64,000 nucleotides of DNA from a virus (lineage: Duplodnaviria; Caudoviricetes). The stretch is from the IMG/VR virus record IMGVR_UViG_3300034061_004620, one strand, 5' to 3'. The position numbers and the translations under genes were made by a program. Every line of letters starts with the position of its first letter. The first letter of the stretch is position 1. This document shows, piece after piece, positions 1,210 to 61,399 of this stretch. The notes below the pieces were generated by a model. It had not been told where the DNA came from and ran no database searches. It was given only the letters and a program-made list of their open reading frames with translations.

Positions 1210-1735
1210 CGATGCAAGAGATGCGTTTACAGATTTTGGGCTTAATTATATACAATCATGGACCAAGCAAGAATTAGCAAAATATAGATCGGAACCTGTA
1301 GTTATTCCAGTAGGAGACTACAGGTTTTTTGTTGGCCCATTTCAGATTCAGGGAGTACATCAGCAATGTTGGAAAGTCAGTCAAATTGACGATAAACACA
1401 CCCATGACTTTGTGGACAAAATTACTGCAATTTTATATTGTTTGTACGAAACAAGAGGACAATATGCACACTCTTCTTATCTATTAGAATTAGATAAAAA
1501 AATTGGAAAACTAAGTTCTGATATCGCATATTACGAAAACGCTCTGTACGCAAAAAAGACTGATAACTTCAAAAAAGATGTTGCATTCAATCGACTGTCA
1601 CATGCAAAAATGCAACGAAAAGATACAGTTAAGATTTTGAAAAAAACTTTAATTTCGGCTAAATACTTTAACTTTAGGAACAACAGCTATGAGACTAACA
1701 GAAATGGGCACCAAGCCCACAGCAAAAAAAATTAA
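1172..1735 (+). CDS. Hypothetical protein (start uncertain)
   Basis: Long ORF 1130-1735 filling the operon; first plausible ATG at 1172. Confidence 0.6.
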   Translation: MMKGASITKRKFDDARDAFTDFGLNYIQSWTKQELAKYRSEPVVIPVGDYRFFVGPFQIQGVHQQCWKVSQIDDKHTHDFVDKITAILYCLYETRGQYAHSSYLLELDKKIGKLSSDIAYYENALYAKKTDNFKKDVAFNRLSHAKMQRKDTVKILKKTLISAKYFNFRNNSYETNRNGHQAHSKKN

Positions 1736-2811: not shown

Positions 2812-3192
2812 ATGGCTTACTCAGGTCAAGTCTTGGATCATTATGAGAATCCAAGAAACGTTGGTAAACTGGATAAAAATGACCCTGCAGTGGGAACTGG
2901 TCTTGTGGGAGCACCTGCTTGCGGAGATGTTTTACAACTACAAATTAAAGTAAATGACGGAATTATAACTGATGCTAAATTCAAGACATATGGATGCGGT
3001 TCAGCTATTGCCAGCTCTTCACTTGTGTCAGAATGGGTCAAAGGAAAAACTCTCGAAGAAGCAGGGCAAATAAAAAATACTCAAATAGCTGAAGAATTGG
3101 CGCTACCGCCAGTTAAAATACACTGTTCGATTTTGGCAGAAGACGCAATAAAGGCAGCATTAGAAGATTACAAAACCAAGCAGAATGCTTAA
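2812..3192 (+). CDS. iscU: Fe-S cluster scaffold IscU
   Basis: DHYENPRNVG, GAPACGD, FKTYGCGSAIASSS, LPPVKIHCS; SD AAGGAG. Confidence 0.97.
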   Translation: MAYSGQVLDHYENPRNVGKLDKNDPAVGTGLVGAPACGDVLQLQIKVNDGIITDAKFKTYGCGSAIASSSLVSEWVKGKTLEEAGQIKNTQIAEELALPPVKIHCSILAEDAIKAALEDYKTKQNA

Positions 3193-4885
3193 AGTTCTTT
3201 TTTATCACGCCAATGATACTTTAGGAACCAGCAAAGATCCGTTGTTTGTAGGAATAGCCGCTTTATATCTAAAAACACATTTAGATATGACAAATCCTGA
3301 AATCGCTAATCAAATTGAATGGTTACTTCCTATTCAAAAAAGATGTTCTGATGAACAACTTGTTGAATATTGTAATCGTGTCAAACCTGACATTTTATGT
3401 ACCAGCCATTATATATGGAATCACACATTCATAACTGAACAATTACACAGAGTTTATAAAAAATTACCGCAAAGCATGCTCATAGTATCAGGCGGACCGA
3501 GTATTGATGTAAACATTAATGATAAATTTTTTAATATGTATCCGTACATTGATTTTGCAATGTACGGTGCCGGAGAACAATCATTTGCTGATCTTATAGA
3601 AAGTATACTCAAGAAAAAAAAATTGATAGCATTTAATACATCAAACATTGCATGGATTGATAAAGAAAAAAATAAAGTTATAATTGCTGATTTTAAATAT
3701 GTTCCACAGCATAAAGTTAGTCCTTACCTGCACAATAAAGAATTTTTTTCTCAAATGATAAGTGATTTGCACCAAAAAGGCATTGAAGTGGTCATTCCGT
3801 ATGAATTAACCAGAGGTTGTCCTTACTCGTGTACTTTTTGTGATTGGAATAGCGGATTGACTAACAAAGTATCGAGACGCAAAGGAACATATAAAGATGA
3901 AATTGATTTATTTCATCATTTAGAAATAAAAAAAATATACTTGTCAGATGCTAATGTTGGACAATATGACGAAGATGTTGATATGATATCGTATCTTGCT
4001 AACAAAAATATAAATGAAAGCGCCGGATTTCAGATAGACGGTAACTTTAGTAAATTAAGAAAAGAAAATAATTTAAAGATATATAACCTAATAGGCGAAG
4101 CCAATCTTTCAACCGAACACGCAGGGTTTACACTTTCAGTTCAAGATATAAATGTTAATGTACTACAAAATATTGATAGACCAGATGTAGGGTGGGATGT
4201 GCATTTAAACATTATTAATGAGTTACATAAAAAATTTCCAAACAAACACTGTAAAATTCAACTTATACAAGGATTGCCAGGGCAAACAGTGATCTCGTGG
4301 CGAGAAACATTGTCAGAAATATGTAAACACCCTGTGACTATACAACCTTTTATAAGCGAACTTTTATCTGCAAGTCCGGCTGCACGTGATAAAGATTATC
4401 AAAATAACTTTAAATTTGAATACAGTAACAGTGAAAGATCTGAAAATAAACATTTTTTCAGAGGAGCTTTCCCAAAATCTTGTACAAGTTTTAGTCAATT
4501 AGATTTTGTAAAAATGACAATGTACACAATAATATACACCACGCTCCAAGTTTACAAAAAACAAGGTATAGAGTTTAATTTAGAAGGTGTGGTAGATGAG
4601 TTTATTGGTTCCAAAAACTATAATGTGCTTGTTGATAATTTGTATCAAAATTGGAAAGAACATGATAAATTTTATTTTACATTAGACTTAGATTTAAAAG
4701 AAAATATAGTCACTGCGTCAAATTTCACAGAATCTGTTATGGATTGGATGGATAGCGTTCTTCTTTTAAAGTTAGTACTGAACAACAGTTTATTAAAGGA
4801 TAAAAAAGAATTTATTAGAAAAGCTGTTATGATAGATCATAACAAACAATTTAAATTAAACATGAAAAAACTTAAGGCATTTTGA
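3185..4885 (+). CDS. Radical SAM protein with N-terminal B12-binding-like domain
   Basis: TRGCPYSCTFC (CxxxCxxC); GGP and GAGE motifs in the N-terminal domain. Confidence 0.85.
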   Translation: MLKVLFYHANDTLGTSKDPLFVGIAALYLKTHLDMTNPEIANQIEWLLPIQKRCSDEQLVEYCNRVKPDILCTSHYIWNHTFITEQLHRVYKKLPQSMLIVSGGPSIDVNINDKFFNMYPYIDFAMYGAGEQSFADLIESILKKKKLIAFNTSNIAWIDKEKNKVIIADFKYVPQHKVSPYLHNKEFFSQMISDLHQKGIEVVIPYELTRGCPYSCTFCDWNSGLTNKVSRRKGTYKDEIDLFHHLEIKKIYLSDANVGQYDEDVDMISYLANKNINESAGFQIDGNFSKLRKENNLKIYNLIGEANLSTEHAGFTLSVQDINVNVLQNIDRPDVGWDVHLNIINELHKKFPNKHCKIQLIQGLPGQTVISWRETLSEICKHPVTIQPFISELLSASPAARDKDYQNNFKFEYSNSERSENKHFFRGAFPKSCTSFSQLDFVKMTMYTIIYTTLQVYKKQGIEFNLEGVVDEFIGSKNYNVLVDNLYQNWKEHDKFYFTLDLDLKENIVTASNFTESVMDWMDSVLLLKLVLNNSLLKDKKEFIRKAVMIDHNKQFKLNMKKLKAF

Positions 4886-15209: not shown

Positions 15210-15295
15210 ATACCTTTATTATGGGGTTATAGCAGTTGTTTTCTTCAAAATATCAACGTTATATAAAACTACAACCTTATAAAGGAGGAAAAAAG

Positions 15296-15850
15296 ATGAG
15301 ACAACATTTGCCTAACATAGCAAAATTTGTATCAATCGTTTTTGGTATGTGGCTTGCTACATACACCTTGGTAGAGGTCACCAAAAACAAATTTGAATCA
15401 CTCAAGGCCGAAAAGGCCGAGATGGCTGCTGTGCATCCGGTAACTGGAGAAGAAAGATCTCGCCAGCTACGATGCCTTACGCAGAACATTTATTGGGAAG
15501 CCGCCAGCGAACCATTTGAAGGTAAAGTCGCTGTGGCTCAAGTAACAATCAATCGCGCTAATAGTAGCCAGTTTCCCAATGATATCTGTGCAGTCGTATA
15601 TCAGAAAAATGTATTCTACTCACGAGTAGTTTGCCAGTTCTCTTGGTACTGCGATGGTACTCACAGAGTACGTCCTGTTTATCAACCCTTGTACAACGAA
15701 AGTGCAGAAGTTGCTAAAAAAGTATTACTGGAAAATTTTAGACTACCCAGTCTCAAAAATGCAATGTATTATCATGCTGACTATGTTCAACCAGGGTGGG
15801 GTAAAAAACCCATTGCCAAAATTGGGCGCCATATCTTTTATGGTAGTTAA
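15296..15850 (+). CDS. Cell wall hydrolase, SleB/Hydrolase_2 family, with N-terminal TM anchor
   Basis: CLTQNIYWEAASEPFEGKVAVAQVTINR, CQFSWYCD, YYHADYV, IGRHIFY; SD AGGAGG at 15283. Confidence 0.9.
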   Translation: MRQHLPNIAKFVSIVFGMWLATYTLVEVTKNKFESLKAEKAEMAAVHPVTGEERSRQLRCLTQNIYWEAASEPFEGKVAVAQVTINRANSSQFPNDICAVVYQKNVFYSRVVCQFSWYCDGTHRVRPVYQPLYNESAEVAKKVLLENFRLPSLKNAMYYHADYVQPGWGKKPIAKIGRHIFYGS

Positions 15851-16498: not shown

Positions 16499-16510
16499 CA
16501 TTTTGTTCGC

Positions 16511-16539
16511 TTGACCAAAAAGATCCTTTTTGCTATACT
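16511..16539 (+). promoter_or_regulatory. Sigma70-type promoter, probably leaderless
   Basis: TTGACC-17-TATACT; ATG 7 nt after the -10 box. Confidence 0.7.
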
Positions 16540-16545
16540 AAGAGC

Positions 16546-16773
16546 ATGAAAAAGGACATGACATTTTATCTTAAGTGGCTTGCAACTTTAGTAACAATTG
16601 CAGGAGCCATTTGCACTTCTATTAACCTTTACCCATTGGGCCCGGCCCTGCTTAACTTTGGCGCCTTACTGTGGCTCATTGTTGCAATAAAATGGCGAGA
16701 GTGGAGTCTTATTGTTATAAATGCAACACTTCTTGCAATTTATACAATAGGACTTGTTATTAAATTGTTATGA
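16546..16773 (+). CDS. 3-TM membrane protein
   Basis: Three hydrophobic segments in 75 aa. Confidence 0.65.
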   Translation: MKKDMTFYLKWLATLVTIAGAICTSINLYPLGPALLNFGALLWLIVAIKWREWSLIVINATLLAIYTIGLVIKLL

Positions 16774-16850
16774 TTTGGATAGTTATAATTTTTGCAATAC
16801 TGGCTATTTGGGCTTACTTTGCCCACAACGACGACAACAATCATTACTAA
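16770..16850 (+). CDS. 26-aa single-TM peptide (not in ORF track)
   Basis: MIWIVIIFAILAIWAYFAHNDDNNHY*; ATGA overlap with previous stop. Confidence 0.45.
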   Translation: MIWIVIIFAILAIWAYFAHNDDNNHY

Positions 16851-16854
16851 AATA

Positions 16855-16934
16855 GCAACAGATCTTTTGGTAGACCAAAAATACCCATTTCTGTATAATA
16901 TAGGTATAGTAACTAATAAGGAGCGTAACAAATG
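16855..16934 (+). repeat. Early promoter/RBS cassette, copy A
   Basis: GCAACA..TTTTGGTAGACC-17-TATAAT..GGTATAGTAACTAATAAGGAGCGTAA; near-identical to 57885-57965 and 61821-61898. Confidence 0.85.
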
Positions 16935-17204
16935 AGAACAGCATTCGAAGGTCTTACTACTCAAGAAATCCGCCAAGTTTCAATGTACGGTTGCACCGAA
17001 GCGCAGATGCGCGAAGCAGTAGAGAGCAGCAGCACTTTCAAGTTCAGCGGCCCTGCAATGATCGCTGCCAGTATGATGAGCGATGCACAAGAAATGATTA
17101 GCACCGAATACGGTGAAGTTGATTTCAACCGTGCCGAAGATGCACGCCAACAGCTGAATCGTGCCAAGTGGGTTCTGTTCACTTATGTTATGGACAAGGA
17201 GTAA
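16932..17204 (+). CDS. Early hypothetical protein
   Basis: First ORF after cassette A; SD AAGGAG. Confidence 0.75.
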   Translation: MRTAFEGLTTQEIRQVSMYGCTEAQMREAVESSSTFKFSGPAMIAASMMSDAQEMISTEYGEVDFNRAEDARQQLNRAKWVLFTYVMDKE

Positions 17205-17208
17205 TTGT

Positions 17209-17358
17209 ATGGCTGACCAAACTTTGCTTGATGTATTGTACAACGAGCTGATCAATCTTGACGAGATGGCCGGATGTTTTGACGAGATGACAAATATTGC
17301 CATAGACTTTCAGCGAGAGAAACTTTTTAAACAGATCAGAGAGTTGGAGGCAGCATGA
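17209..17358 (+). CDS. Early hypothetical protein
   Basis: MADQTLLD... start at 17209 after SD AAGGAG. Confidence 0.65.
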   Translation: MADQTLLDVLYNELINLDEMAGCFDEMTNIAIDFQREKLFKQIRELEAA

Positions 17359-17747
17359 TGCTTGACCGTAAAGTAAATTTTATTACCAAAACCGACGGTC
17401 GAGGCTACTGGTCTAACACAGTCAAGACCGTACCAATCAATCGTGTGCGTTTGGCCTACATTGATGAAGACGGCACATTTGGTGAGCTCAGGGCATACTT
17501 TGATACTAAAGAATGGGACGTTGATGCAGATGGTCTAATTTACACTGACATGATGTGGAAGCACAGTTTCCTGACTTGCATGGAAAATGTCATGGGATTC
17601 AGCCCGGACGCTATCCTTGATGTTAGTTACAGCGAGATGGGCATGCAAGGTGAAAATTATGTGAGCATGGACGTAGGCGCACAGTTTCTATTAGAGTGCA
17701 ATGCACTGTATCGATTCACAGTACACAAAGAAGCAGTAAATAGCTAA
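17355..17747 (+). CDS. Early acidic hypothetical protein
   Basis: 130 aa; SD GGAGG. Confidence 0.7.
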   Translation: MMLDRKVNFITKTDGRGYWSNTVKTVPINRVRLAYIDEDGTFGELRAYFDTKEWDVDADGLIYTDMMWKHSFLTCMENVMGFSPDAILDVSYSEMGMQGENYVSMDVGAQFLLECNALYRFTVHKEAVNS

Positions 17748-17749
17748 TC

Positions 17750-17896
17750 ATGAAAAAGATTGTAAAAATACCGTATCAAAAGACTCGAGCACATCGTGTG
17801 TTGTTCGAAGCTGGCTCACCATTCAAGAGCCGTACGGTAGAAAACAAACGGCAGTTCAAACGACAACCCAAGCATCGCAAGCAGGAGGCAGCATGA
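17750..17896 (+). CDS. ArfA-like basic peptide, 48 aa (not in ORF track)
   Basis: MKKIVKIPYQKTRAHRVLFEAGSPFKSRTVENKRQFKRQPKHRKQEAA*; F-x-x-R-x3-N-K-R...R-x-x-K-H as in ArfA. Confidence 0.5.
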   Translation: MKKIVKIPYQKTRAHRVLFEAGSPFKSRTVENKRQFKRQPKHRKQEAA

Positions 17897-18099
17897 CCGC
17901 AGGCTGGATCTTGATTATTGCATTGCATACCACCAGTGGTCAATTTGTTGACAAGTTTGAACTTGGGCCTTTTGCTACCAAGAAAGCCTGTATGGCTACT
18001 AAAATTTCTGGACTTAATCAGTTCAAGAAAAATAAAGTGTGTGTCACAGTAGCCCACTGGGAAGGACGTGATATTGATTCTGGTGTAGCACCCGACTAA
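17893..18099 (+). CDS. Small two-Cys protein, family copy 1
   Basis: WILII...F-x-T-x3-C...VC. Confidence 0.6.
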   Translation: MTAGWILIIALHTTSGQFVDKFELGPFATKKACMATKISGLNQFKKNKVCVTVAHWEGRDIDSGVAPD

Positions 18100-18109
18100 G
18101 GAGATCAAA

Positions 18110-18322
18110 ATGGAACCCAAAGACTTTAGTAATACTTTTAACCGAGCGCGACAAGAAATACGTTATGCTCAAGGGTTAGGACGCAAGCGTCAGATTATCA
18201 ATCGACAACTTGAGGAACTGCATTCTATACATATGGAAATGATAGAAGGTGCAGTGCAGGCAAAAGAAGCTCAAGGTTTTCCGGAAGCTAATCAACTTAT
18301 TGATCATATTAGGGCACTGTAA
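18110..18322 (+). CDS. Hypothetical protein
   Basis: SD AAGGAG. Confidence 0.7.
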   Translation: MEPKDFSNTFNRARQEIRYAQGLGRKRQIINRQLEELHSIHMEMIEGAVQAKEAQGFPEANQLIDHIRAL

Positions 18323-18606
18323 TGGATATTGATAAATTGGTAGATAATATTCTCGAAGATCGTATTGCTATTACAGATCTGGATATTCCGCAAATGGAAG
18401 CTGTGATTGATTTCATGCGCGAGCACGTAGCTAACATCGACAATGATGAGTATAGAGAAGCACTAATGTGTCTGGTTGATGCAATAGAAATTTCAGCCGA
18501 AAACAGATTTGTTAACGAAGCAGCAGGTGCCTGGGACGAAACCATTGAAGCCAGTGTTGCCCGCGGCAATAGCTATTTTGAACTTGAAAATTATGTAGTA
18601 CAGTAG
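18322..18606 (+). CDS. Acidic hypothetical protein
   Basis: TAATG coupling; followed by terminator. Confidence 0.7.
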   Translation: MDIDKLVDNILEDRIAITDLDIPQMEAVIDFMREHVANIDNDEYREALMCLVDAIEISAENRFVNEAAGAWDETIEASVARGNSYFELENYVVQ

Positions 18607-18633
18607 TATGTGGTGCTCCTTAGGCAGTATTTT

Positions 18634-18658
18634 AACCCGCTTCGGCGGGTTTCTTTTT
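18634..18658 (+). terminator. Intrinsic terminator
   Basis: AACCCGC-TTCG-GCGGGTT then TCTTTTT; CTAAATA late promoter follows at 18660. Confidence 0.9.
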
Positions 18659-18671
18659 GCTAAATACTCTT

Positions 18672-18971
18672 ATGAAGATCACAGATATTATCCGCAGCGT
18701 ATTAGATGTTATAGATAATGCAGAAGCTCCTGCAGAACCTGCTCTGGCCATTACCGTACAAGTTGATCCTGAACAAGAAATGCAGGACATGCAGCGTTTG
18801 GCTGGAATTTTAGATCTCGAAGATGCAGAATTTGCCAACGAACCAAACACTATTGTAGCACCAATGGGTGCTGCTTTCCCAGCCGGGGATGATGTACATC
18901 ACAGCAAAAACCCTGCAGACATTAGAACTAATGCACCCAGCATGTTTCCCGGATATCAGGCAAGGATGTAA
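18672..18971 (+). CDS. Late hypothetical protein (MKITDII N-terminus)
   Basis: ATG 6 nt after CTAAATA. Confidence 0.65.
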   Translation: MKITDIIRSVLDVIDNAEAPAEPALAITVQVDPEQEMQDMQRLAGILDLEDAEFANEPNTIVAPMGAAFPAGDDVHHSKNPADIRTNAPSMFPGYQARM

Positions 18972-18973
18972 CC

Positions 18974-19393
18974 GTGGCTAATATTACAATCACAGTTCAG
19001 AGTTTACTTAATACAGCAGTATATAATAGCTATACCATTGACAATGGTCAAACCATTGACCAGCTTAAAACAGCCGTCAATTCAGCGCGAGGTTTTAATA
19101 GTAGTTGGTATAATATAGTTCTAAATGAACATGTGGTATCGGGATCAGCTACCTTGGCAAGTTTGGGCATTGTGTCTGGGACCAGGCTCAGAACAGCAAA
19201 TGTCATTGATAGGTTAGCTACAAAAGAATTACGACAAAAAGCCAAATTAGACTTATCGGAACTTGACCGAACAGCAGACGGTAATCCAAGATCAACTTAT
19301 GATATAACAGAGTTGCCCACACAATACAGCGGCAATAACATTGTTGATAATCCACAACCCAACGGATTGATTTTGGGAAGACCTTGGATATAA
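18974..19393 (+). CDS. Ubiquitin-like (beta-grasp) domain protein
   Basis: I-x-V-x-S-L...TIDQLK...G...IV...TLASLGI..T-x-L spacing mirrors ubiquitin; GTG start. Confidence 0.5.
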   Translation: MANITITVQSLLNTAVYNSYTIDNGQTIDQLKTAVNSARGFNSSWYNIVLNEHVVSGSATLASLGIVSGTRLRTANVIDRLATKELRQKAKLDLSELDRTADGNPRSTYDITELPTQYSGNNIVDNPQPNGLILGRPWI

Positions 19394-19396
19394 TTT

Positions 19397-21046
19397 ATGG
19401 CCTATGTTAAACCCAGCGCCGGCCGAGGCGATCGAAGACAAAATACTACCAACTACGAGCACCCACAAGAAACTAATCTATTAGATCTCCATCGTGCCAT
19501 GGAGTATGACCTTGCAGGCAAACCTATAATTCGTGTAATCTCCAAATTGGCAGGTCCCGAAGTTGCAGGGCAAGTTACTGCATTTGGCGAACCTTTAGCT
19601 ATATCGCCTACTGCTGTTATTCAGTTAGATGCTATCTACGGAACCACAACAGATGTAATACAAACATACACCAGTGGCACAGGATCGTCAGCTGGATCAA
19701 ACGCACAGATATTTAGAGTACAATCTGGTACCACACAAGGTGGCTATGGCGTATTACGATCAAAACGATTCATGCGATATCGCCCGGGACAGGGTGTGGT
19801 CACAAGATTTACCGCAGCCTTTACACAGGGTGTAGCAGGTAGCCTACAGTTTGCCGGCTTGGCCAATCAAGAAAACAGATTGATATTTGGGTTTGATGGA
19901 GATAGATTTGGCATTTGTCGTAGCACTGGTGGCAAAGCCACTATCTTGTTAATGACCATGACTGTGGCTCCCAATGCCACACAAACTGCCACCATTACCT
20001 TGAACGGTGTGGCCTACACAGTGGTATTAAGCAACACCACTGCTGAAGTTGCCATACAGACCATTACCAATCGTGCGGGCGGATACGGCGGATGGTTATT
20101 CCAACAAACAGACGGGGCTATGTTGTGGTTGGCACCAACACTGGGACCAATGACGGGTACTTTCAGTTTTACCAGCACCGGTAATGCACAAGCCACCTTT
20201 GAAGTCAAACAAGCAGGTATAGCACAGACCGACTACTGGACCTATCAAGAAGATTGGAATGTGGACCGATTGGATGGCAGCAACACCATTGCTACCAACC
20301 CCAGCGGCATGTTGCTTGATCCTACCAAATTGAATGTGTATCAAATCAACATGCGATGGTTGGGAGTAGGAGCCATCAGTTACGCAATAGAAGATCAAGC
20401 ATCGGGAACACTGATCTATGTGCATAGAGAACACTATACTAACCAATATACCGTTCCGCATATTGATAACCCCAGCTTTAAAATTACCTATGCCGCAGTC
20501 AACACTACCAACGCCACCAATCTTGCAGTGATTGGTGCCAGCATGTATGGTGCAATAGAAGGCACCATAAATCAAAATGAGTTGACTCGTAGCAAAAACA
20601 CCAGTAAATCAAATTTGGCACAAAACCAAGTGCATCACTGCTTGACTATCAAAAACAGTGTGGTCACCAATGGCCTGGCCGGAGCCAACAATGGCAATTA
20701 TGTTATCAATGCCAAAGAAGCCATCGTCAAACAGTTGAGTTTTAGTATACAAGGACAGGATCCAGCTGATGTGTATCTATTTTTTGACCCCACCAGTTTG
20801 TCAGCGCCACACTTGTACAACAATATCAACTACAACAATGAAGTGTTTAGCACTGTCACAGGCACATTCAATCTTGCCATAGATACTGCTATTTGGTCCG
20901 GCATTGTGGGTATCAATGGCACAATCAATATTGATCTCAGTGCTTATCGTATTACCATACCACCCGGTAGTCAAGTCAGCATTGCTGTAGAAAGTACCGG
21001 GTCAATAAGTCGCATGGACTGTTCGCTAACTTGGTCAGAAGATTAA
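19397..21046 (+). CDS. Putative virion structural protein (beta-rich, lectin-like)
   Basis: 549 aa Gly/Thr/Ala-rich protein in a late operon. Confidence 0.55.
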   Translation: MAYVKPSAGRGDRRQNTTNYEHPQETNLLDLHRAMEYDLAGKPIIRVISKLAGPEVAGQVTAFGEPLAISPTAVIQLDAIYGTTTDVIQTYTSGTGSSAGSNAQIFRVQSGTTQGGYGVLRSKRFMRYRPGQGVVTRFTAAFTQGVAGSLQFAGLANQENRLIFGFDGDRFGICRSTGGKATILLMTMTVAPNATQTATITLNGVAYTVVLSNTTAEVAIQTITNRAGGYGGWLFQQTDGAMLWLAPTLGPMTGTFSFTSTGNAQATFEVKQAGIAQTDYWTYQEDWNVDRLDGSNTIATNPSGMLLDPTKLNVYQINMRWLGVGAISYAIEDQASGTLIYVHREHYTNQYTVPHIDNPSFKITYAAVNTTNATNLAVIGASMYGAIEGTINQNELTRSKNTSKSNLAQNQVHHCLTIKNSVVTNGLAGANNGNYVINAKEAIVKQLSFSIQGQDPADVYLFFDPTSLSAPHLYNNINYNNEVFSTVTGTFNLAIDTAIWSGIVGINGTINIDLSAYRITIPPGSQVSIAVESTGSISRMDCSLTWSED

Positions 21047-33172: not shown

Positions 33173-34399
33173 ATGAAAGTAGGTTTTATTGGTTTAGGTA
33201 AATTAGGATTGCTTTGTGCAGAAACTATAGCATTAAATTTTGATGTGACTGGCTATGATATTTACCCAAAACAAAGTGATAAAATAAAAATTTCTGATAA
33301 TCTTAGAGGGGCAGTTGTAGATAAGGACATTATATTTGTTGCGGTACAAACTCCGCACGATCCAGATTATGACGGATCCAAGCCCATAACGCATTTACCC
33401 AATAAAGATTTTGATTATACTATTGTTAAAAATGTTCTGAAAGAAATTGATGTTTGGGCACAACCTGACCAATTGGTTGTTCTTATTTCTACGGTGTTAC
33501 CAGGTACAGTTCGTCGAGAATTGAGAGATTGTATTACTATACCTCGTTTTATTTATAATCCGTACCTAATTGCAATGGGATCTGTAGAGTGGGATATGGT
33601 CAATCCTGAAATGGTAATTATTGGTACCGAGGATGGCAGTGAAACTGGTGATGCTAAACAACTTATAGATTTTTATCGTCCCCTTATGCAAAACGATCCA
33701 CGCTATGTAGTAGGCACATGGGACGAAGCAGAAAGTATAAAAATATTTTATAATACATTTATCAGTACCAAAGTTGGATTAGTTAATATGATTCAAGACG
33801 TTGCAATGGCAAATGGTAATATCAATGTTGATGTTGTAACTGATGCACTTGCCAGTAGCACTATAAGAATTATTAGTAAAAAATATATGACAGCTGGTAT
33901 GGGTGATGCTGGCCCTTGTCATCCGAGAGATAATATAGCATTACGTTGGTTAGCCGAAAAGCTTAATCTTGGATATGATATCTTTGATACTGTAATGCAT
34001 GCCAGAGAACAACAAGCACGTAACATTGCAAAGTATTTAGGCAAAATACAAAGAAAGTACAATTTGCCAATTTTTATTATGGGTAAGGCATATAAACCTG
34101 ATGTTGATTTTGTTGATGGCAGTTACAGTTTACTAATTGGGCATTATCTCGAGTCTTCACAAGTCAAGTTTTATTATGTGGATCCTCTTACTGGTGATGA
34201 TCCACCTTTTAGTGGAATACCGGTAATTGCATTTCTCGCACACAATAGAAATATCACATACGGATATACAGGTGAGCAATCAGAACAAGAATTATATGTA
34301 GATCTTGAACCTGGAAGTATCATAATTGATCCCTGGAGACAGTACAAAACAAATAAGGACTATCAAGTAATATACTATGGTAACACACGTATCGTTTAA
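33173..34399 (+). CDS. UDP-glucose/GDP-mannose dehydrogenase family protein
   Basis: GFIGLGKLG, STVLPGT, AESIKIFYN, GMGDAGPCHPRD, GKAYKP. Confidence 0.9.
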   Translation: MKVGFIGLGKLGLLCAETIALNFDVTGYDIYPKQSDKIKISDNLRGAVVDKDIIFVAVQTPHDPDYDGSKPITHLPNKDFDYTIVKNVLKEIDVWAQPDQLVVLISTVLPGTVRRELRDCITIPRFIYNPYLIAMGSVEWDMVNPEMVIIGTEDGSETGDAKQLIDFYRPLMQNDPRYVVGTWDEAESIKIFYNTFISTKVGLVNMIQDVAMANGNINVDVVTDALASSTIRIISKKYMTAGMGDAGPCHPRDNIALRWLAEKLNLGYDIFDTVMHAREQQARNIAKYLGKIQRKYNLPIFIMGKAYKPDVDFVDGSYSLLIGHYLESSQVKFYYVDPLTGDDPPFSGIPVIAFLAHNRNITYGYTGEQSEQELYVDLEPGSIIIDPWRQYKTNKDYQVIYYGNTRIV

Positions 34400-36583: not shown

Positions 36584-37832
36584 CGAACATATAGGAAAAA
36601 TTGTAGAAGGTTTACTTGATGAAATATCAGCAAACGTACTTGTAAGAGTGGATTCGCTGATATCTGCAACTATTTCTGACAGACTACAACATTATAACTA
36701 CGAAGCACATATTCAGGCAGCAGCCACAGAGGCTCTTGACCGCAAAGCATCGGAATATACCATTGATTCCAAACGATTAGAAAAACGTATAGCAGACCGT
36801 ATAGAGTTGGTGCTGCAAGATACTCAATCAACTACGACCGACTTAATTAACACTCAAATTGCTCAAAAAGTAGCCGCTGTAAATTTTAATCAAATGTTTG
36901 TTGATGCCATGAGTGGTCTTATTGCAGATAGATTACAAGAGTTTACATTTCCAGAACAAAGTATTAATGCCACCGCTATTCAATTTGATAATTTTACTCT
37001 CTCTGGTGATAACATACGCGGCGGTTTGATTGAAGATTTTAGCAGCACTGGTATAGATGATCGAGCAACAGGAGTTGCTATTACTGTGCTCGACAATGCC
37101 ACAGTTATAGAAAACAACTTGTATACTAAGGATTTAACCGTAGAGGGCACAGCAGTCATCAGCGGTAATCTCAGTATTACTGGAACTATGGATAAAGAAA
37201 CAAACTTTTTCCAAGACTTAGTACGAAGCACTGCTTCGTCCACGCTATCTACTATCAATTCCAACTTATTCGATAACTACAGTTCGCTGATATTTAACAA
37301 AATCAAAAACGAAGGTATCAATCTCAGTAAGATCCTATTAAATGATAGTGAAGTTATCACTGACAATGAGTTAGGCCCAACCATAATAAACAGTAACTTG
37401 CAACGACTGGGCTTGATAAAAGAACTACAGGTGAGTGGTGAAACACTACTGGCCGAAACACTGTATGTAACGCCAAAAAGAGTCGGCATCAACACTATTG
37501 AACCAAGTGGTGCACTTTCTATATGGGACCAAGAAGTTGAAATAGTGGCTGCAAAAAAAGCAGCTGATACTGCCAGTTTTGGTACACCAAGACAACAAAG
37601 AATGGTGTTGACATCAAATAACAAAGAAAATATAGTGTTAGAACCAAATGGATCTACTGTTATAAACGACCTACGTATAGGCACAATGAGATTTACTACA
37701 GCATCACAACCTCCAAATTATGTGAGCGAGCCAGGACATGTGGTATGGAATACCAATCCCAGTTTGGGCGGACCCATGGGGTGGATTTGTTTGGGTGCAG
37801 CCAATTGGGCCAACTTTGGCATCATAGATTAA
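36573..37832 (+). CDS. Putative tail-fibre/virion protein
   Basis: Helical N-terminus, beta-rich body, C-terminal GWIC..A.W..FG motif. Confidence 0.55.
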   Translation: MDLNEHIGKIVEGLLDEISANVLVRVDSLISATISDRLQHYNYEAHIQAAATEALDRKASEYTIDSKRLEKRIADRIELVLQDTQSTTTDLINTQIAQKVAAVNFNQMFVDAMSGLIADRLQEFTFPEQSINATAIQFDNFTLSGDNIRGGLIEDFSSTGIDDRATGVAITVLDNATVIENNLYTKDLTVEGTAVISGNLSITGTMDKETNFFQDLVRSTASSTLSTINSNLFDNYSSLIFNKIKNEGINLSKILLNDSEVITDNELGPTIINSNLQRLGLIKELQVSGETLLAETLYVTPKRVGINTIEPSGALSIWDQEVEIVAAKKAADTASFGTPRQQRMVLTSNNKENIVLEPNGSTVINDLRIGTMRFTTASQPPNYVSEPGHVVWNTNPSLGGPMGWICLGAANWANFGIID

Positions 37833-39142
37833 TGTTCGAAAAAACTTTCTGTTCAAGCCCGTGGTTTCACGTTAGGTTAAGCTACGATGGCGGATTTGAA
37901 TCTTGCCGATGGGCCAAGAATCCACAAAGACTCTACAATTTTAAAAACACAACTATTATGCAGTATTATAATAGCGACCAAATGCAACAGTTACGACAAC
38001 AGTTACTTGATGGTGAAAAACCTTTGCATTGTGACACCTGTTATTACGAAGAATCTTTTGGCAAATTAAATGGTAGAATTAGGCAGTTGAACAAGAGTGC
38101 TGTAGATGTCAATAACTTTGATTTAACTTTACGTAGTAGTCCGCATTACAATAATTTTAAATACAGTTTAGATAATAATGGCCTGGCTAATTTAGAACCA
38201 GTAGACTTACAAATTGAACTGGGGAACAAATGTAATAGCGCATGTATCATGTGTAATCCGGAGGCCAGCAGTCGTCTTGAACCGGATTACAAAAAACTTC
38301 ATAAAATTAATGCGGAGCTTTTTGCACAGCCAGCCACTTATACTTCATGGACACGAGACCACAACAACGTCAAACGTTTTGTTGAACAAATATCAAGTAT
38401 TAAAAATCTACGTTATGTACATTTTTTAGGTGGCGAAACACTGTACGAAGAAGCGTTTTACACCATATGTGATAGACTAATAGAATCAGGGAAATCAAAA
38501 AATATCATTATAGGAACAACCACCAATGGTACAATTTACAATGACAATATCAAAAAATACGTACAGAATTTTAAACAATTTCATCTTGGGATAAGCATAG
38601 AATCAGTAACTGATCTGAACGACTACATAAGATGGCCAGGAAAAATTGATAGTATATTGCCAAACATAGATAAATTTTTACAACTTCGTGACAGTAATCC
38701 TGAACTGTTTATTTCTTTACGTATCACTCCAAACGTGTTTACTATTTCGGAGATTGATAAATTGTTTACTTACATGATAGAAAATAAAGTAATAGCAGAA
38801 AGCTGTAATATTTTGCATAAACCAGATTGCTTGCGTATTGAATTAATTCCGGATGATATAAGGAAAGAAATAGTAACCAAAATTCAAGGCTTAATTGATT
38901 ATTATGAATTGGATAAACAGGATTTGGTGAATATACGTAGAAGTGATACAATCAATCAAGTAATTGCAAACGTCGTTCTTGATTATTATCATTTTTTATG
39001 CAATTACGAAACTCCTATTGATGTAGAGCAGTCAAGATATCAGCTGATTGATTTTGTTAAAGCATTTGAATCAATTAGGAATAATTCAATTTTAAATCAT
39101 GTACCAAGATATGAAAAATTTCTTAGACTTTATGGCTATTGA
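37832..39142 (+). CDS. Radical SAM protein with N-terminal SPASM/twitch-like Cys cluster
   Basis: KCNSACIMC (CxxxCxxC), GGE, N-terminal FC...CR...CDTC; start moved to the TAATG overlap. Confidence 0.88.
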   Translation: MFEKTFCSSPWFHVRLSYDGGFESCRWAKNPQRLYNFKNTTIMQYYNSDQMQQLRQQLLDGEKPLHCDTCYYEESFGKLNGRIRQLNKSAVDVNNFDLTLRSSPHYNNFKYSLDNNGLANLEPVDLQIELGNKCNSACIMCNPEASSRLEPDYKKLHKINAELFAQPATYTSWTRDHNNVKRFVEQISSIKNLRYVHFLGGETLYEEAFYTICDRLIESGKSKNIIIGTTTNGTIYNDNIKKYVQNFKQFHLGISIESVTDLNDYIRWPGKIDSILPNIDKFLQLRDSNPELFISLRITPNVFTISEIDKLFTYMIENKVIAESCNILHKPDCLRIELIPDDIRKEIVTKIQGLIDYYELDKQDLVNIRRSDTINQVIANVVLDYYHFLCNYETPIDVEQSRYQLIDFVKAFESIRNNSILNHVPRYEKFLRLYGY

Positions 39143-42455: not shown

Positions 42456-42704
42456 ATGCACACTGACGCTCTCGGCAAAGATATTGTGGTTGATGATTAT
42501 GTGGCTTTCCCGCAGGCCAACCGGCTCATGATAGGTAAAGTTGCTCGATTGAGTAACAAAATGATTATTATAGAAGCAGTGGTCAAGAAAAGAATCAATC
42601 GGCGCACGGGCGAATTTGTTGAAACCTATCGCAAATATCCCAAGGATAGCGTTATAGTAGATCGAGATGCTGGGCTTACAATGTACGTTATAAGGAACTC
42701 ATGA
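42456..42704 (+). CDS. Small SH3/KOW-like hypothetical protein
   Basis: DALGKDIVVDDYVAF...IGKV; TTGACT/TAAAAT promoter upstream. Confidence 0.6.
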   Translation: MHTDALGKDIVVDDYVAFPQANRLMIGKVARLSNKMIIIEAVVKKRINRRTGEFVETYRKYPKDSVIVDRDAGLTMYVIRNS

Positions 42705-43717
42705 TTAAACGAATTGGCTTTGCTTGTAAATGGCTGAATGATCCGAGCGAATGTGGCGGCATGAAAGTGAATGCTGTGGATAGGGATCTCAATGGCCGAT
42801 CGACTACTATGCGTTGGTTGCGAGAGCATCCTGGTGAGGCTGAACAGCGTCAGTGGGACATAATGAATCACAACGCTGCTGCGGCAGTAAAGATGGTTGA
42901 GCGTGTGGCTACCTTGCCTGCTGAGCGTAGAATGGTACGTTTAGGTAGCGAAATGTTGCAAGGCTACACTGAACCCAATTGGATTGAATGGTGGCAACAA
43001 GCAGATGTACAACGCCATTTAGAAAAGATCTTTGCACCTATTGGTGAAACTGCACGCCGCCTGGATGTACGGCTAAGTTTTCATCCCGGGCAATTTTGTG
43101 TGTTGGCCAGTGAGAATGACAACATCGTAAATAGAAGTATAGAGGAGTTTGAATATCATGCAGATATGGCAAGATGGATGGGCTACGGCGCTTCGTTTCA
43201 GGACTTTAAAATCAATGTCCACATCTCGGGTAAACGCGGTCCAGCCGGTATCCGCAGTGCGCTCCAGCGCCTCAGCCCCGAAGCAAGAAATTGCATCACG
43301 ATCGAAAACGACGAAATGTCATGGGGACTTGAAGCCAGTCTTGAATTGGCGAATGACGTCGCTTTGGTATTAGATCTACATCATCATTGGATTGCCACAG
43401 GAGAATACATTGAGCATAGAGATGATCGTATCAAGAGGGTCATTGATAGTTGGCGCGGTGTGCGCCCTGTCGTTCATTATAGCATTAGTCGTGAAGATGT
43501 TCTTGTGGGTTATGACCCTACCTGCCGTCCGCAACTTGATACACTTTTAGCACAGGGTTACAAAAAACAAAAACTGCGAGCGCACAGTGACTTTGCGTGG
43601 AATCAAGCGTGTAACGAGTGGGCATTAGAACACAATGAGTGGGCTGATATCATGGTCGAAGCCAAAGGAAAGAATTTGGCCAGCCAACAATTATACGAAC
43701 AATCTAAACTTCTCTGA
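42701..43717 (+). CDS. uvsE: UV damage endonuclease UvsE/UVDE
   Basis: IGFACK, RLSFHPGQF, IENDE, LDLHHHW, AHSD, MVEAKGK. Confidence 0.93.
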   Translation: MIKRIGFACKWLNDPSECGGMKVNAVDRDLNGRSTTMRWLREHPGEAEQRQWDIMNHNAAAAVKMVERVATLPAERRMVRLGSEMLQGYTEPNWIEWWQQADVQRHLEKIFAPIGETARRLDVRLSFHPGQFCVLASENDNIVNRSIEEFEYHADMARWMGYGASFQDFKINVHISGKRGPAGIRSALQRLSPEARNCITIENDEMSWGLEASLELANDVALVLDLHHHWIATGEYIEHRDDRIKRVIDSWRGVRPVVHYSISREDVLVGYDPTCRPQLDTLLAQGYKKQKLRAHSDFAWNQACNEWALEHNEWADIMVEAKGKNLASQQLYEQSKLL

Positions 43718-50384: not shown

Positions 50385-50959
50385 GAGCAAGAGAGTTTAT
50401 AAAAGAAGAACGCGAAGAGTGGTATAGTATGAATACTCCTCTGATGCAACAACAATTTGATCAGTGGGATCAACAAAAACGCGGCCGTAATGCTCTAACC
50501 ACTATGCCGTTGCCAAAAACCGATTCCAGATACACGGTAGGACCTGATTTTGTTAAAGACCCAGCGGCGCCAAGTGATCTGATAAGAAACCCGCAGGTGG
50601 CCAAAGAATTAGGCTTTCCTGGTGGTTGGACTGACAACAAGCCCGTACGAATGACACGAAAAATGCTTGACCCTGCTACAGGCAATGTTCAATTGGGTCC
50701 TGATAAACTTGTACAACCAGGCACGGAAGAATACGCAGAATTACAACAACGAGTCAATCCCATAACAGGCAGAATTCGTAATGCTGTCAATGCACGAATA
50801 CCAAAGGGACCATCTGAACCGCCCAGTCCGGAACACGAGCTACGATCAAATGTGTTCAGAAATCAAACCCAGGATAAAGGCAAAGAAGCAACATTTCCAA
50901 GTGATCAGCCCAGAGGCTATCGCATAGGCGATCCTTTTAGACAGAAATACAGAACATGA
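50381..50959 (+). CDS. Tagged hypothetical protein
   Basis: MRAREFIKE (GTG start). Confidence 0.7.
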   Translation: MRAREFIKEEREEWYSMNTPLMQQQFDQWDQQKRGRNALTTMPLPKTDSRYTVGPDFVKDPAAPSDLIRNPQVAKELGFPGGWTDNKPVRMTRKMLDPATGNVQLGPDKLVQPGTEEYAELQQRVNPITGRIRNAVNARIPKGPSEPPSPEHELRSNVFRNQTQDKGKEATFPSDQPRGYRIGDPFRQKYRT

Positions 50960-53664
50960 GATACAAAGAATTTAACTTAACCGAAGACGAACTGTTTGAG
51001 CTCAACATGAGCCCAACCAATCTGGCCAAGATGGTCAAAGGCATTGATGCCCGAGTGGGCATGGAGTTTGAACTGATTGTGCCCAATGTTGATAATCCCG
51101 ACGAAGATGAATATGAAAGCGAACCTGACTATGATGCCGATGAAAGTTTCCCTACTGGTCCCGGGTGGACAAGAGATGTAATTGATTTCTTCCGCGGTGG
51201 CGACATGGGCAACAGTAGAGCCCTTATACAACGCCAAATTGATGAATTAAATGAAAACTTTTATGCGTGGGTAGACGAAGATCAAGAAGAATTTATAAAT
51301 TCCGTTGAAGGACAAGATCGCATCACAGAAATTGCAGGCAGCAATGTAGATAGATCAGATTATGACACTGATGAAGAGTATGTAGCGGCCATTCAAGCCT
51401 ACATCGACGAAAATGAGGACTACATTCGTGATGAGTTGATTGACGAATACAACGACAATCTTGACAGTAAATTTGAAGAATGGTTAGATGACCAAGGCAT
51501 CAACACCATGGCTGACTTTGCCAACGAGTACGATTTAGAATGGCCGTATTGGACCCAGCCGGATTACAACAGCGGTGGTGGTGCCAGTATTGATGCAGTA
51601 GCTGATGACTTTAGTCAAGCCATTGGTCGTCCAGTAAATGCAGCCAGCAGTTATCATGGCGCCACAAGACGCCCCGGACACTATGTGGTAGAACCTGACG
51701 GTAGCTTGCAGGGAGACCAGGGCGAAACAGGACTGGAGTTTGTTAGTCCTGTGCTGACCGTAGATGAAATGCTGTCTGACATAGACAAGGTGGTGGCGTG
51801 GGCTGAGCGAGCAGGCGCCTATACCAACAGCAGCACAGGCTTGCACATGAATGTTAGTGTGCCCAATCAGAAAAATCTTGACTATGTGAAATTGGCCATG
51901 TTCCTGGGCGACAACTACATCCTGGAACAGTTTGGTAGAGAAGGTAATACCTATTGTAAATCTGCTCTAAAGAAAATTGTCACCATGGGTCGCGGTGATC
52001 CCAGTCGTGTTGAAGAAATGATGCGTCAGTTCCAGGGCGGACTAAGTGAATTGGCCAGCAAAATATTACATACAGGTAGCACAGAAAAATTTACCAGCAT
52101 AAACAATCGTGATCAGTGGGTGGAATTCCGTGGCCCGGGCGGTGATTGGATGACTGGCGACGCCGGTATAACCACTGTGAAAAACACCTTGCTCAGAGCA
52201 GTGGCAGCACTTAGTGTGGCTACTAAGCCCGAAGAGTTCAAACAAGAATACTACAAGAAATTGTACAAAACTCTAACACAAGGCCGGGAAGATGATACCA
52301 TCCAATACTTTGCCAAGTATGCAGCCGGTGAATTACCACAAAGTGCATTGAAAGCATTTGTAAGAAACATTCAGGGCAAGAGAAAAGCTAATAAACTTGC
52401 ACTTGGTGCCAAAGACATCTTGTTGGTATGGAAGGTTATTGGTAGCCAAAACAGCCCTTATCAAAGCCAAGGCGTAGAAGTTGTGGCCATGGATGAGTTG
52501 GGTGCATACAAAGAAGCTATTAAAAAATGGAGCCTAAACTTGGGTGGTAATAGTATAGAAGATTACACTCAGCAAAATGGTTGGCGAGCTCAACCCGTAC
52601 GAGCAGCTACCAGCAATGATATGAACATGGCTTCGAACAAGTTTTATCGTGTGGCAGTAGGTGGCAGACCTGACCGGAAAGTATATGTAAGAGCAATGAG
52701 TGAATACCAGGCAAAAACTTTAGCTGTTCAAAGACACGCTGATGTATTTGCCAATGTGACCTTTGATGACATGGTAGCAATTCATGATCCGGACTATCAA
52801 GGTGAAGAAACTGCTGTAGCTGCGATGCGAGCCAGATCAGGAGAACCTATACCAGCTGGCGCTGTAGGTGGAGAACAAAGCACAGATGCCAACTATGAAA
52901 TCTATAACACAGAAACTAATCGTAGTATGTTTAGATTTATTGCTAACACCGATCCTGAAGCCGAAAGAAAGTATCAAGATTGGTTATCTGGCTCCAACAG
53001 TAGTCCAGAATTATTCAAGTGGCGTAGAATAGAAAACCGTGGCATACCTGGATCAACTGCTGAATTACAGAGACAACGAACTGCACAAACACCAAGTCGT
53101 GATCAAGAATTTACCGGGCACTGGGAAGTAGTTAGTAGAAACACCAATGAGGTTGTATCCGTAATAAGCGGTATCGGAAACGCAGTAGCGGACGCCGAAA
53201 GACACGCAGCAAGATGGCAACAACAAACAGGGTTTGATGATCCTATTTACGTGAGACCACTCATGCGACCAAGAGACAATCTGTCACGCAATCAAGGTGA
53301 AGTTCAACAACGATTCACAGTTGATTACACTATACGTCAGTACGGAGATATTATGAACAATAGGGTCACTGTTCCTGCGGCCAATGCCGACGCTGCTATG
53401 GCCAACGTTAGAAATCAACTTGAAGCCAGTAGAGCTGAGGTTCTCAGAATTGAAGCTGATCCTGTGACACAGGCACCAGCTCGAGGTACTGAAAGCCTAC
53501 CACCAGGCAATACTCGTTGGTTGGTATTAGATCAAAATGATCGTGAAGTGTATAGTTTTGTTCATCGCAGCAACCAAGGCGAAGCAAATCAGTATGCTGC
53601 GAATTGGTTAAGAGGAAACAACATGGTTGGACAAGGTGAATTTACTGTGGTGCCAGCAAGATGA
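50956..53664 (+). CDS. Amidoligase (COOH-NH2 ligase type 2) with acidic insert and C-terminal repeats
   Basis: MRYKEFNLTE; GMEFE, EPDGSL, GLEFVSP, TNSSTGLHMNVS, SIN, VEFR. Confidence 0.8.
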   Translation: MRYKEFNLTEDELFELNMSPTNLAKMVKGIDARVGMEFELIVPNVDNPDEDEYESEPDYDADESFPTGPGWTRDVIDFFRGGDMGNSRALIQRQIDELNENFYAWVDEDQEEFINSVEGQDRITEIAGSNVDRSDYDTDEEYVAAIQAYIDENEDYIRDELIDEYNDNLDSKFEEWLDDQGINTMADFANEYDLEWPYWTQPDYNSGGGASIDAVADDFSQAIGRPVNAASSYHGATRRPGHYVVEPDGSLQGDQGETGLEFVSPVLTVDEMLSDIDKVVAWAERAGAYTNSSTGLHMNVSVPNQKNLDYVKLAMFLGDNYILEQFGREGNTYCKSALKKIVTMGRGDPSRVEEMMRQFQGGLSELASKILHTGSTEKFTSINNRDQWVEFRGPGGDWMTGDAGITTVKNTLLRAVAALSVATKPEEFKQEYYKKLYKTLTQGREDDTIQYFAKYAAGELPQSALKAFVRNIQGKRKANKLALGAKDILLVWKVIGSQNSPYQSQGVEVVAMDELGAYKEAIKKWSLNLGGNSIEDYTQQNGWRAQPVRAATSNDMNMASNKFYRVAVGGRPDRKVYVRAMSEYQAKTLAVQRHADVFANVTFDDMVAIHDPDYQGEETAVAAMRARSGEPIPAGAVGGEQSTDANYEIYNTETNRSMFRFIANTDPEAERKYQDWLSGSNSSPELFKWRRIENRGIPGSTAELQRQRTAQTPSRDQEFTGHWEVVSRNTNEVVSVISGIGNAVADAERHAARWQQQTGFDDPIYVRPLMRPRDNLSRNQGEVQQRFTVDYTIRQYGDIMNNRVTVPAANADAAMANVRNQLEASRAEVLRIEADPVTQAPARGTESLPPGNTRWLVLDQNDREVYSFVHRSNQGEANQYAANWLRGNNMVGQGEFTVVPAR

Positions 53665-61141: not shown

Positions 61142-61399
61142 ATGACAGACCCTTTCAAAGACATAGCCGATCAAGCGCACTTCAACATCTACCACAGCAA
61201 CTTGTGGAATGGTACGGGTCGTAGATTTGCTGAAATGATTGTGGAACGATGCGCCAGCATGTGTGGCAGTCAGGCCGACCGCAAAAATCTTCGCCAGGCA
61301 TTTGGTCTGCCTGTGGAGAGTGATGTCAAGTACCCAGGTCCTGATGCACATTGGAGTATTACGTCGCAGTATGACAGAGACTACAACTTACCCAAGTAA
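61142..61399 (+). CDS. Small helical paralogue (LADQA family) copy 3
   Basis: IADQA...FAEMIVERC...AFGL. Confidence 0.65.
   Translation: MTDPFKDIADQAHFNIYHSNLWNGTGRRFAEMIVERCASMCGSQADRKNLRQAFGLPVESDVKYPGPDAHWSITSQYDRDYNLPK

Follow-up and report, generated by a model that had tools for sequence, protein, structure and literature searches.

The locus described here lies in a 64,000-nt stretch of viral DNA, referred to throughout as the window (IMG/VR virus record IMGVR_UViG_3300034061_004620; Duplodnaviria; Caudoviricetes), and centres on a small gene whose product resembles the bacterial ribosome-rescue factor ArfA. The gene sits in a run of small ORFs of no named function, with the gene for a cell-wall hydrolase (15236-15850) on one side of the run and structural genes of the virion, starting at 19397, on the other. 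Judging from its sequence the window belongs to a phage; it encodes a class Ia ribonucleotide reductase and virion proteins with 37-39% identity to their counterparts in the Synechococcus phages S-T4, S-B43 and S-B05. The source is a giant (jumbo) freshwater phage, and the CheckV figures for contigs of its relatives, in which 137 kb corresponds to 37% completeness, together with a contig of 352 kb, point to a genome of about 350-370 kb. Elsewhere the window carries genes for a B12-binding radical SAM protein (3185-4885), a radical SAM/SPASM protein (37745-39142), a 902-aa protein with an Amidoligase_2 domain (50956-53664), a UvdE UV-endonuclease (42701-43717) and a UDP-glucose dehydrogenase (33173-34399). 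The features that bear on the small gene are collected in Table 1.

Table 1. Features of the ArfA-like gene, its surroundings and the tmRNA genes of relatives (positions refer to the window unless a contig is named).
Feature	Position	Strand	Remarks
Stop-start junction with upstream 130-aa ORF (17355-17747)	17745-17752	+	sequence TAA-TC-ATG
ArfA-like gene	17750-17896	+	ATG to TGA, 48 codons plus TGA
R13-F19 (R-A-H-R-V-L-F), family N-terminal signature	17786-17806	+	may match ArfA helix N14-L20 (A-x-x-A-L-L)
P24-V30 (P-F-K-S-R-T-V)	17819-17839	+	equivalent of ArfA L24-E30; aligned in every profile comparison
N32-H42 (N-K-R-Q-F-K-R-Q-P-K-H), basic tail with R-x-x-K-H	17843-17875	+	corresponds to ArfA N32-H45 minus G35-K36-G37
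AGGAGG and ATGA stop/start overlap with downstream 68-aa ORF (17893-18099)	17883-17896	+	AGGAGG 17883-17888; ATGA 17893-17896
First downstream terminator-like hairpin	18634-18660	+	hairpin 18634-18651; 7-bp GC-rich stem, TTCG loop, T run; outside the gene
Permuted tmRNA	L162:1553-1993	-	
Permuted tmRNA	L161:1193-1593	-	
Permuted tmRNA	L164:1060-1593	-	
Permuted tmRNA, more distant relative	L043:9694-10189	+	4.6 kb from the ArfA-like gene

The original prediction had singled out a basic ORF at this position by a string of residues reminiscent of ArfA, and the 48-aa translation does contain that string, LFEAGSPFKSRTVENKRQFKRQPKH; with 15 Lys/Arg and 2 His against 3 Glu, its net charge is approximately +12. 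The elements quoted with it combine into the motif F-x2-R-x3-N-K-[KR]-x(1-6)-R-x2-K-H; in the six-frame translation of the window this has a single match, which lies in the ORF, and no match turned up in 300 shuffled windows.

In JGI/IMG a gene for the identical peptide has been called on 16 contigs, of which the longest is 352,437 bp, and carries no name for its function. A word-indexed search returned close relatives in 44 protein clusters (47-50 aa, 72-96% identity to the peptide), and an alignment of 45 close-family sequences, hereafter A1, has 15 invariant positions. Among IMG/VR records the gene is found at 44 loci, and at about 35 of these its position is conserved, directly 3' of a homologue of the 130-aa ORF and 5' of homologues of the ORFs at 17893-18099 or 18110-18322, with the gene itself being better conserved in the relatives' loci than either of its neighbours. 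Pairwise dN/dS values against relatives (Nei-Gojobori) range from 0.03 to 0.23; for the more distant pairs the synonymous sites are saturated. The 48-aa ORF is a real gene under strong purifying selection.

One contig departs from this pattern. L034 (IMGVR_UViG_3300008116_001709) matches the window at approximately 100% identity along some 6 kb, and in the equivalent of the gene (L034:4995-5090) it has a 55-nt deletion just after ATGAA, so that a frameshifted stub of 11 codons is left. Either the allele is a natural null or the contig was wrongly assembled at this point, and because a contig so nearly identical has a broken copy the gene may be dispensable, unless L034 is misassembled. The broken copy, along with the tiny size of the ORF, the lack of a Shine-Dalgarno sequence and the overlap with the ribosome-binding site and start of the next gene, could be taken to mean that the ORF is a chance frame or a translated spacer that is kept only so that its neighbours are translationally coupled. 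It is very hard to credit this reading, which is contradicted by the selection analysis, by the 15 residues that do not vary in the close family, by a conservation that exceeds that of the flanking genes and by the occurrence of 119 distant relatives in unrelated contexts.

The arrangement of the gene with its neighbours is compact. The spacing of TAA, two nucleotides and ATG at the 5' junction is retained in most relatives, and translation is probably coupled to that of the upstream ORF as no Shine-Dalgarno sequence precedes the ATG at this stop-start junction. At the other end the AGGAGG of the downstream ORF falls within the 3' end of the ArfA-like gene, and the ATGA overlap is found again in many relatives. 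Neither an internal terminator-like site nor an outstanding fold was found within 17730-17930 (fold z = -1.9). The hairpin at 18634-18651 lies four ORFs downstream of the gene and is likely to mark the end of the transcription unit. The 32 nt that comprise this hairpin and its T run (18629-18660) are identical to intergenic DNA of the Pectobacterium phages MA11 and MA12; in a megablast search of the 2.9-kb region 16500-19400 against phages this was the only match, and MA11 and MA12 are otherwise unrelated to the window there.

In bacteria ArfA accumulates only once tmRNA has been overwhelmed. The bacterial arfA gene is translated from an mRNA that has been cut inside the ORF, such that the product is normally tmRNA-tagged (PMC8012679). 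The phage gene differs in each of the elements on which expression from a non-stop mRNA depends: it ends in an ordinary stop codon, placed six residues past K-H in agreement with the original prediction that the peptide stops just after its motif, it contains no internal RNase III hairpin or terminator, and the 48-aa peptide has no dispensable hydrophobic tail. As it has its own stop codon and lacks both the hairpin or terminator and the tail, this phage-encoded peptide should escape control by tmRNA and be produced each time its operon is expressed.

Searches with the peptide alone were uninformative with regard to function, with no match in Pfam (even at E <= 10), PHROGs or NCBIfam, and a tblastn search of 50,697 phage records from GenBank with the peptide and with a second family member (P0087) yielded chance matches or none. 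The A1 profile did not find ArfA in the PDB. When it was run against 1.84 billion representative proteins it identified 119 proteins at E <= 0.001, and since all of these are 35-91 aa long there are no fused forms among them. These proteins and the peptide together make up a wider-family alignment of 120 sequences (A2), the consensus of which is K-x-R-A-H-x-[VA]-L-F-x-x-[DN]-[STL]-P-F-[KR]-x-[KR]-x-[VE]-x-x-K-x-x-[YF]-x-R-x-x-K-H.

Two Pfam families recur when the members of A2 are scanned singly. DUF7230 (PF23876) is matched by 50 of the 120 sequences (best E 1.8e-8), most of them below its 27-bit cut-off, and ArfA (PF03889) by 14 (best E 3.7e-4), all of them below the curated cut-off (25.5 bits, the best relative reaching 20.3 bits); no other family is matched by more than three. 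DUF7230 thus touches the wider family and is also matched by 3 of the 45 close relatives (best E 0.0016), with the 48-aa peptide itself giving no match. When the A2 profile was compared with all PDB sequences there were six matches at E <= 10, all of which were chains of E. coli ArfA (best E 0.0022), in an alignment that pairs P-F-K-p-K-v-v-e-n-K-k---k-Y-k-R-k-p-K-H with ArfA and places a 3-residue gap at GKG. In the ESM Atlas the peptide lies nearest to DUF7230 and ArfA clusters, DUF7230 being the nearest named cluster, which we take as a lead only, and the members of one A2 cluster are named "stalled ribosome alternative rescue factor ArfA" by JGI.

The relationship was further assessed by profile-profile comparison (hhalign) with bacterial ArfA, using 24 enterobacterial sequences and a more diverse set of 29 sequences that was drawn from the best-scoring of 37 ArfA-positive genomes among 401 Pseudomonadota genomes sampled. 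A2 matched the enterobacterial set at a probability of 90.1% (E 1.6e-6) and the diverse set at 92.4% (P 5e-7, 38 columns). A strict subset of the family (E <= 1e-6 to the A1 profile) still matched diverse ArfA at 91.9% over 29 columns, and A1 plus the hits at E <= 6e-9 at 89.1% over 26 columns. The link between the peptide and ArfA is transitive, as the close-family profile, A1, gives a weak result when used alone (15.6% and 60.7%). Composition does not explain the match, since 150 column shuffles of the diverse ArfA alignment scored 8.9 +/- 2.0 (maximum 16.8) and the reversed alignment 8.8, against 35.1 for the real alignment. The stricter subsets align over a shorter stretch, from P24/F25 through the C-terminus, and on these comparisons homology to ArfA is secure from P24/F25 to the R-x-x-K-H end and suggestive for the N-terminal R-A-H-x-V-L-F segment.

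The original prediction of an ArfA-like peptide is therefore supported as a remote homology over the mid-region and tail, with 14 of the 120 sequences matching Pfam ArfA directly. The profile search that it called for gave ArfA with the wider family (PDB and hhalign at 90-92%) and not with the peptide alone or with its close relatives alone. The core of E. coli ArfA that it quoted agrees with the arfA gene of NC_000913.3, and the GKG(S) loop that it described as missing corresponds to a 3-residue gap at GKG in all alignments, just where it had been placed. What emerges is that the peptide is best described, on the support of these alignments, as a distant, stripped-down relative of ArfA, which falls outside ArfA in the strict sense on four counts, namely a Pfam score below the cut-off, the lack of KGKGS, the lack of the N-terminal motif and a different regulatory design.

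A similarity that is seen at the profile level only, and below the Pfam cut-offs, may also be read in another way, in which the peptide is a descendant of ArfA, or has converged on it, and now serves some other purpose, as a small basic protein that binds RNA or ribosomes, for instance one that is hibernation-like, that modulates initiation or that acts as an RNA or DNA chaperone. The peptide is very basic, short and predicted to lack a fold of its own, and its gene adjoins lysis-like and virion genes rather than genes for translation. The similarity is, against this, colinear over 26-38 columns which include positions that are not basic (P/L-F, V/E and Y/F) and so goes beyond composition, no further family of ribosome-binding proteins recurs in either the Pfam or the PDB searches, and natural intermediates connect the family to canonical ArfA. 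Taking both sides together it would seem unlikely that the peptide has such a different role.

The likeness to ArfA (YhdL, of Gamma- and Betaproteobacteria; PF03889; PDB 5MDV, 5H5U, 5U4I and 5MGP) is that of a small, basic protein with colinear motifs, those in common being [PL]-F-[KR]-x-[KR]-(V/E), N-K-[KR] and [YF]-x-R-x-x-K-H, and the length of the phage peptide is approximately that of active truncated ArfA. The differences are at the loop, where the phage peptide is three residues shorter and has no KGKGS, and at the N-terminus, where R-A-H-x-V-L-F stands in place of Y-x-H-x-[KR]-G-x-I-x-D-N. The loop KGKGS[YF] is invariant in all 29 sampled ArfA sequences and is replaced by N-K-R-Q-F in the phage peptide. 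The N-terminal motif Y-x-H-x-[KR]-G-x-I-x-D-N-A is absent; instead the peptide begins M-K-K-I-V-K-I-P-Y-Q-K-T, a segment that varies within the family and contains no H-x-[KR]-G.

Conservation within the wider family can be given for three segments. In the N-terminal signature R13, H15, L18 and F19 are 90-98% conserved over the 120 representatives, and this segment is aligned to ArfA only in the full-family comparison, not with the stricter subsets. In the mid-region P24 is 97% and F25 89% conserved, and the [KR]-x-[KR] strand region of ArfA is kept in the hhalign alignment. In the tail, which like that of ArfA is basic and ends in R-x-x-K-H (R38-Q-P-K41-H42), R38 is conserved in 100%, K41 in 97% and H42 in 88% of the family, and K33 and Y/F36 are also conserved. 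Residues 31-48 of the phage peptide include seven Lys/Arg and one His.

Structures of ArfA give these segments a context. Residues 31-48 of ArfA, nearly half of which are basic, occupy the vacant mRNA tunnel, where the K-H motif makes conserved contacts; the A site holds residues 21-30, and Q27-E30 extend the beta-sheet of RF2 by a strand (PMC8012679, PMC5378476). L19, L24 and F25 form a hydrophobic patch that binds W319, V198 and F217 of RF2 (PMC8012679, PMC5378476), and in the E. coli structures ArfA's N-terminal minidomain becomes ordered as RF2 opens (PMC5378476). In the full-family alignment the RF2-contact region pairs F25 with F25 and L18 with L19, and has P24 for L24 and V17 for A18; what lies N-terminal of P24 in this region aligns in no comparison but the least strict one. 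Truncated ArfA is still active when it ends at N47, the shortest active form, and is inactive when it ends after M40 (PMC5378476). The phage peptide covers this minimal active core, as the hhalign alignment extends it four residues beyond the position of Asn47. An AlphaFold2 model shows a confident extended coil (pLDDT 85.6, pTM 0.34) for which Foldseek and VIA-align found no fold match, a result which is uninformative, as would be expected of a peptide that folds only on the ribosome.

It is in this anatomy that the case for a decoy or blocker must be weighed, that is a peptide that fills the empty mRNA tunnel, and may recruit RF2, without any release of the nascent peptide, and which would compete with the tmRNA-SmpB, ArfA or ArfB of the host; the effect could be to spare phage proteins from degradation tagging or to contribute to the shut-down of translation in the host. 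Of all parts of the peptide the tail that would bind the tunnel is conserved most securely, the minidomain which drives the opening of RF2 in ArfA is not conserved, and the position aligned with A18 holds a Val, similar in size to the Thr of the E. coli A18T variant, in which RF2 is recruited but not activated (PMC8012679). Across the family, however, that position is V in 59%, A in 16% and I in 14%, so that many members have the Ala of ArfA, and F25 and the RF2-recruiting strand region are conserved too, which a pure tunnel plug would not need. Furthermore a tunnel blocker would also inhibit the tmRNA that relatives of this phage themselves encode (see below), and stalled ribosomes would be of no obvious help to a phage that depends on host translation. 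A decoy is therefore improbable in our estimation, and rather more so than the other basic role considered above.

ArfA has been noted in phages before. Annotated copies are known from Pseudoalteromonas phage J2-1, Citromicrobium phage RXM (g10) and pelagiphage HTVC027P (gp30), and a phage ArfA is not in itself a new idea, a few phage genomes having canonical copies that are annotated as such. Two papers mention a phage "ArfA" without experiments (PMC8953757, PMC12753301), and the literature searched yielded neither experiments on any phage ArfA-like protein nor a description of a GKG-less, unregulated phage family or of a link between DUF7230 and ArfA; DUF7230 itself was not found there. The annotated and canonical phage proteins keep the N-terminus of ArfA, with KGKGSY in Arash, pf16 and RXM, and can be found by BLAST or Pfam, unlike the 48-aa peptide. 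Canonical ArfA occurs in cultured phages of Salmonella, Pseudomonas, Ralstonia, Pseudoalteromonas, Erythrobacter, Roseobacter and Citromicrobium, some of these hosts being Alphaproteobacteria. Bacterial ArfA is said in a review to be confined to subsets of Beta- and Gammaproteobacteria (PMC8012679). In the genome of Salmonella phage Arash, gp99c (L157:1417-1641) is annotated as "ribosomal protein L2" and is actually a canonical ArfA homologue with KGKGSY, and Pseudomonas phage pf16 has an unannotated canonical ArfA frame (L158:1486-1638) on the opposite strand to pf16_199, the end of which it overlaps.

The J2-1 protein, a 51-aa "alternative ribosome-rescue factor A", is of particular relevance. 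Like the phage peptide it has a GKG-less tail and ends soon after K-H, and unlike it has the ArfA type of N-terminus; it matches A2 at 95.1% (hhalign), whilst BLASTP of the 48-aa peptide against it gave no alignment. By these features the J2-1 protein is a bridge between the family and canonical ArfA. BrfA of Bacillus and ArfT of Francisella are likewise small basic peptides that recruit release factors, and BrfA has a K-H motif (PMC8012679), but no sequence relationship to either was detected; BrfA was not among the A2 matches in the PDB at E <= 10, despite being present there as 6SZS (PMC8012679), and no Pfam family of the BrfA or ArfT type recurs among the 120 members, ArfT having been compared through Pfam only.

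Within the 401 Pseudomonadota genomes sampled ArfA was found in 37 and DUF7230 in two, and no close relative of the peptide came up when a single genome of each bacterial or archaeal species was scanned; for these reasons the family appears to be mainly viral or metagenomic in the data searched. The two DUF7230 genes (L166 and L167, of genomes G176 and G320) are not in any of the 37 ArfA genomes. Their N-terminal half is unlike that of the phage peptide, N-P-V-A-K... being closer to the N-K-A-K-S-L-V-A of Pseudomonas-type ArfA than to R-A-H-x-V-L-F.

No tRNA or tmRNA gene was found in the window, but a permuted, two-piece tmRNA is present on the contigs of three relatives (L162, L161 and L164) with peptides that are 81-85% identical, as well as in the more distant relative listed in Table 1. 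The L162 gene scores 144.8 bits with the Rfam model beta_tmRNA and 149.3 bits with tmRNA_permuted, and the beta type of the tmRNA suggests a betaproteobacterial host. The tags encoded on the contigs of the three close relatives are ANAANDEVFALAA and AANDELFEVRLAA, and with L043 included those of the four contigs are ANAANDEVFALAA, AANDELFEVRLAA and ANDDYFYQDLKLAA. On L165, a contig of L019, a 138-aa GGQ protein (1300-1716, minus strand) matches the Pfam RF-1 domain with 43.4 bits; its C-terminus is acidic, whereas the tail of ArfB is basic, and it adjoins a homologue of the window ORF 61399-61800. From the tmRNA and the GGQ protein of relatives it follows that these phages carry other ribosome-rescue genes. 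A search of the window for the GGQ protein found in relative G405 came back empty, and the notion that the peptide acts with a phage GGQ partner was therefore rejected.

Putting the anatomy and the context together, we consider it fairly probable that the gene encodes a minimal, unregulated, release factor-dependent factor of the ArfA type which rescues ribosomes at the 3' end of non-stop mRNA. By analogy with ArfA, the basic C-terminal half of the peptide (N32 to H42 and beyond) would thread into the vacant mRNA tunnel of a stalled ribosome, leaving the mid-region P24-F25-K-S-R-T-V in the A site, where it would pair with the beta-sheet of a release factor of class I, which is most likely the host's RF2. 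Pairs of ArfA and RF2 are adapted to the species in which they work. The release factor would then hydrolyse the peptidyl-tRNA without a stop codon. In concert with the phage's own two-piece tmRNA, as seen in close relatives, such a factor may keep ribosomes available whilst messages are being degraded during infection. In this scheme we infer ribosome binding, the release factor partner, peptide release and the benefit to the phage, and the same is true of the rescue or decoy activity, and of the connection to abortive-infection RNases, that the original prediction put forward.

A bolder extension, which we offer as speculation and regard as rather unlikely, is that jumbo freshwater phages carry a self-contained rescue kit composed of the two-piece tmRNA and an unregulated mini-ArfA. 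Having neither the minidomain nor KGKGS, the mini-ArfA would activate release factors in a different manner and perhaps with less host specificity, for example using RF1 as well as RF2 or working in hosts without ArfA, and its purpose would be survival when mRNA is cleaved, whether through the phage's own shut-off of the host or through abortive-infection defences of the RNase type.

Should the peptide be active as a rescue factor, then phages would go beyond tolerating the stress of stalled ribosomes and supply a rescue factor of their own that is free of the tmRNA-dependent brake which bacteria put on ArfA. The family, which comprises at least 119 clusters at 50% identity and is mostly viral or metagenomic, would in that case give a function to Pfam DUF7230 and its unassigned neighbours. 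It would also constitute a natural minimal ArfA, one that shows which parts of the protein activate a release factor without a stop codon.
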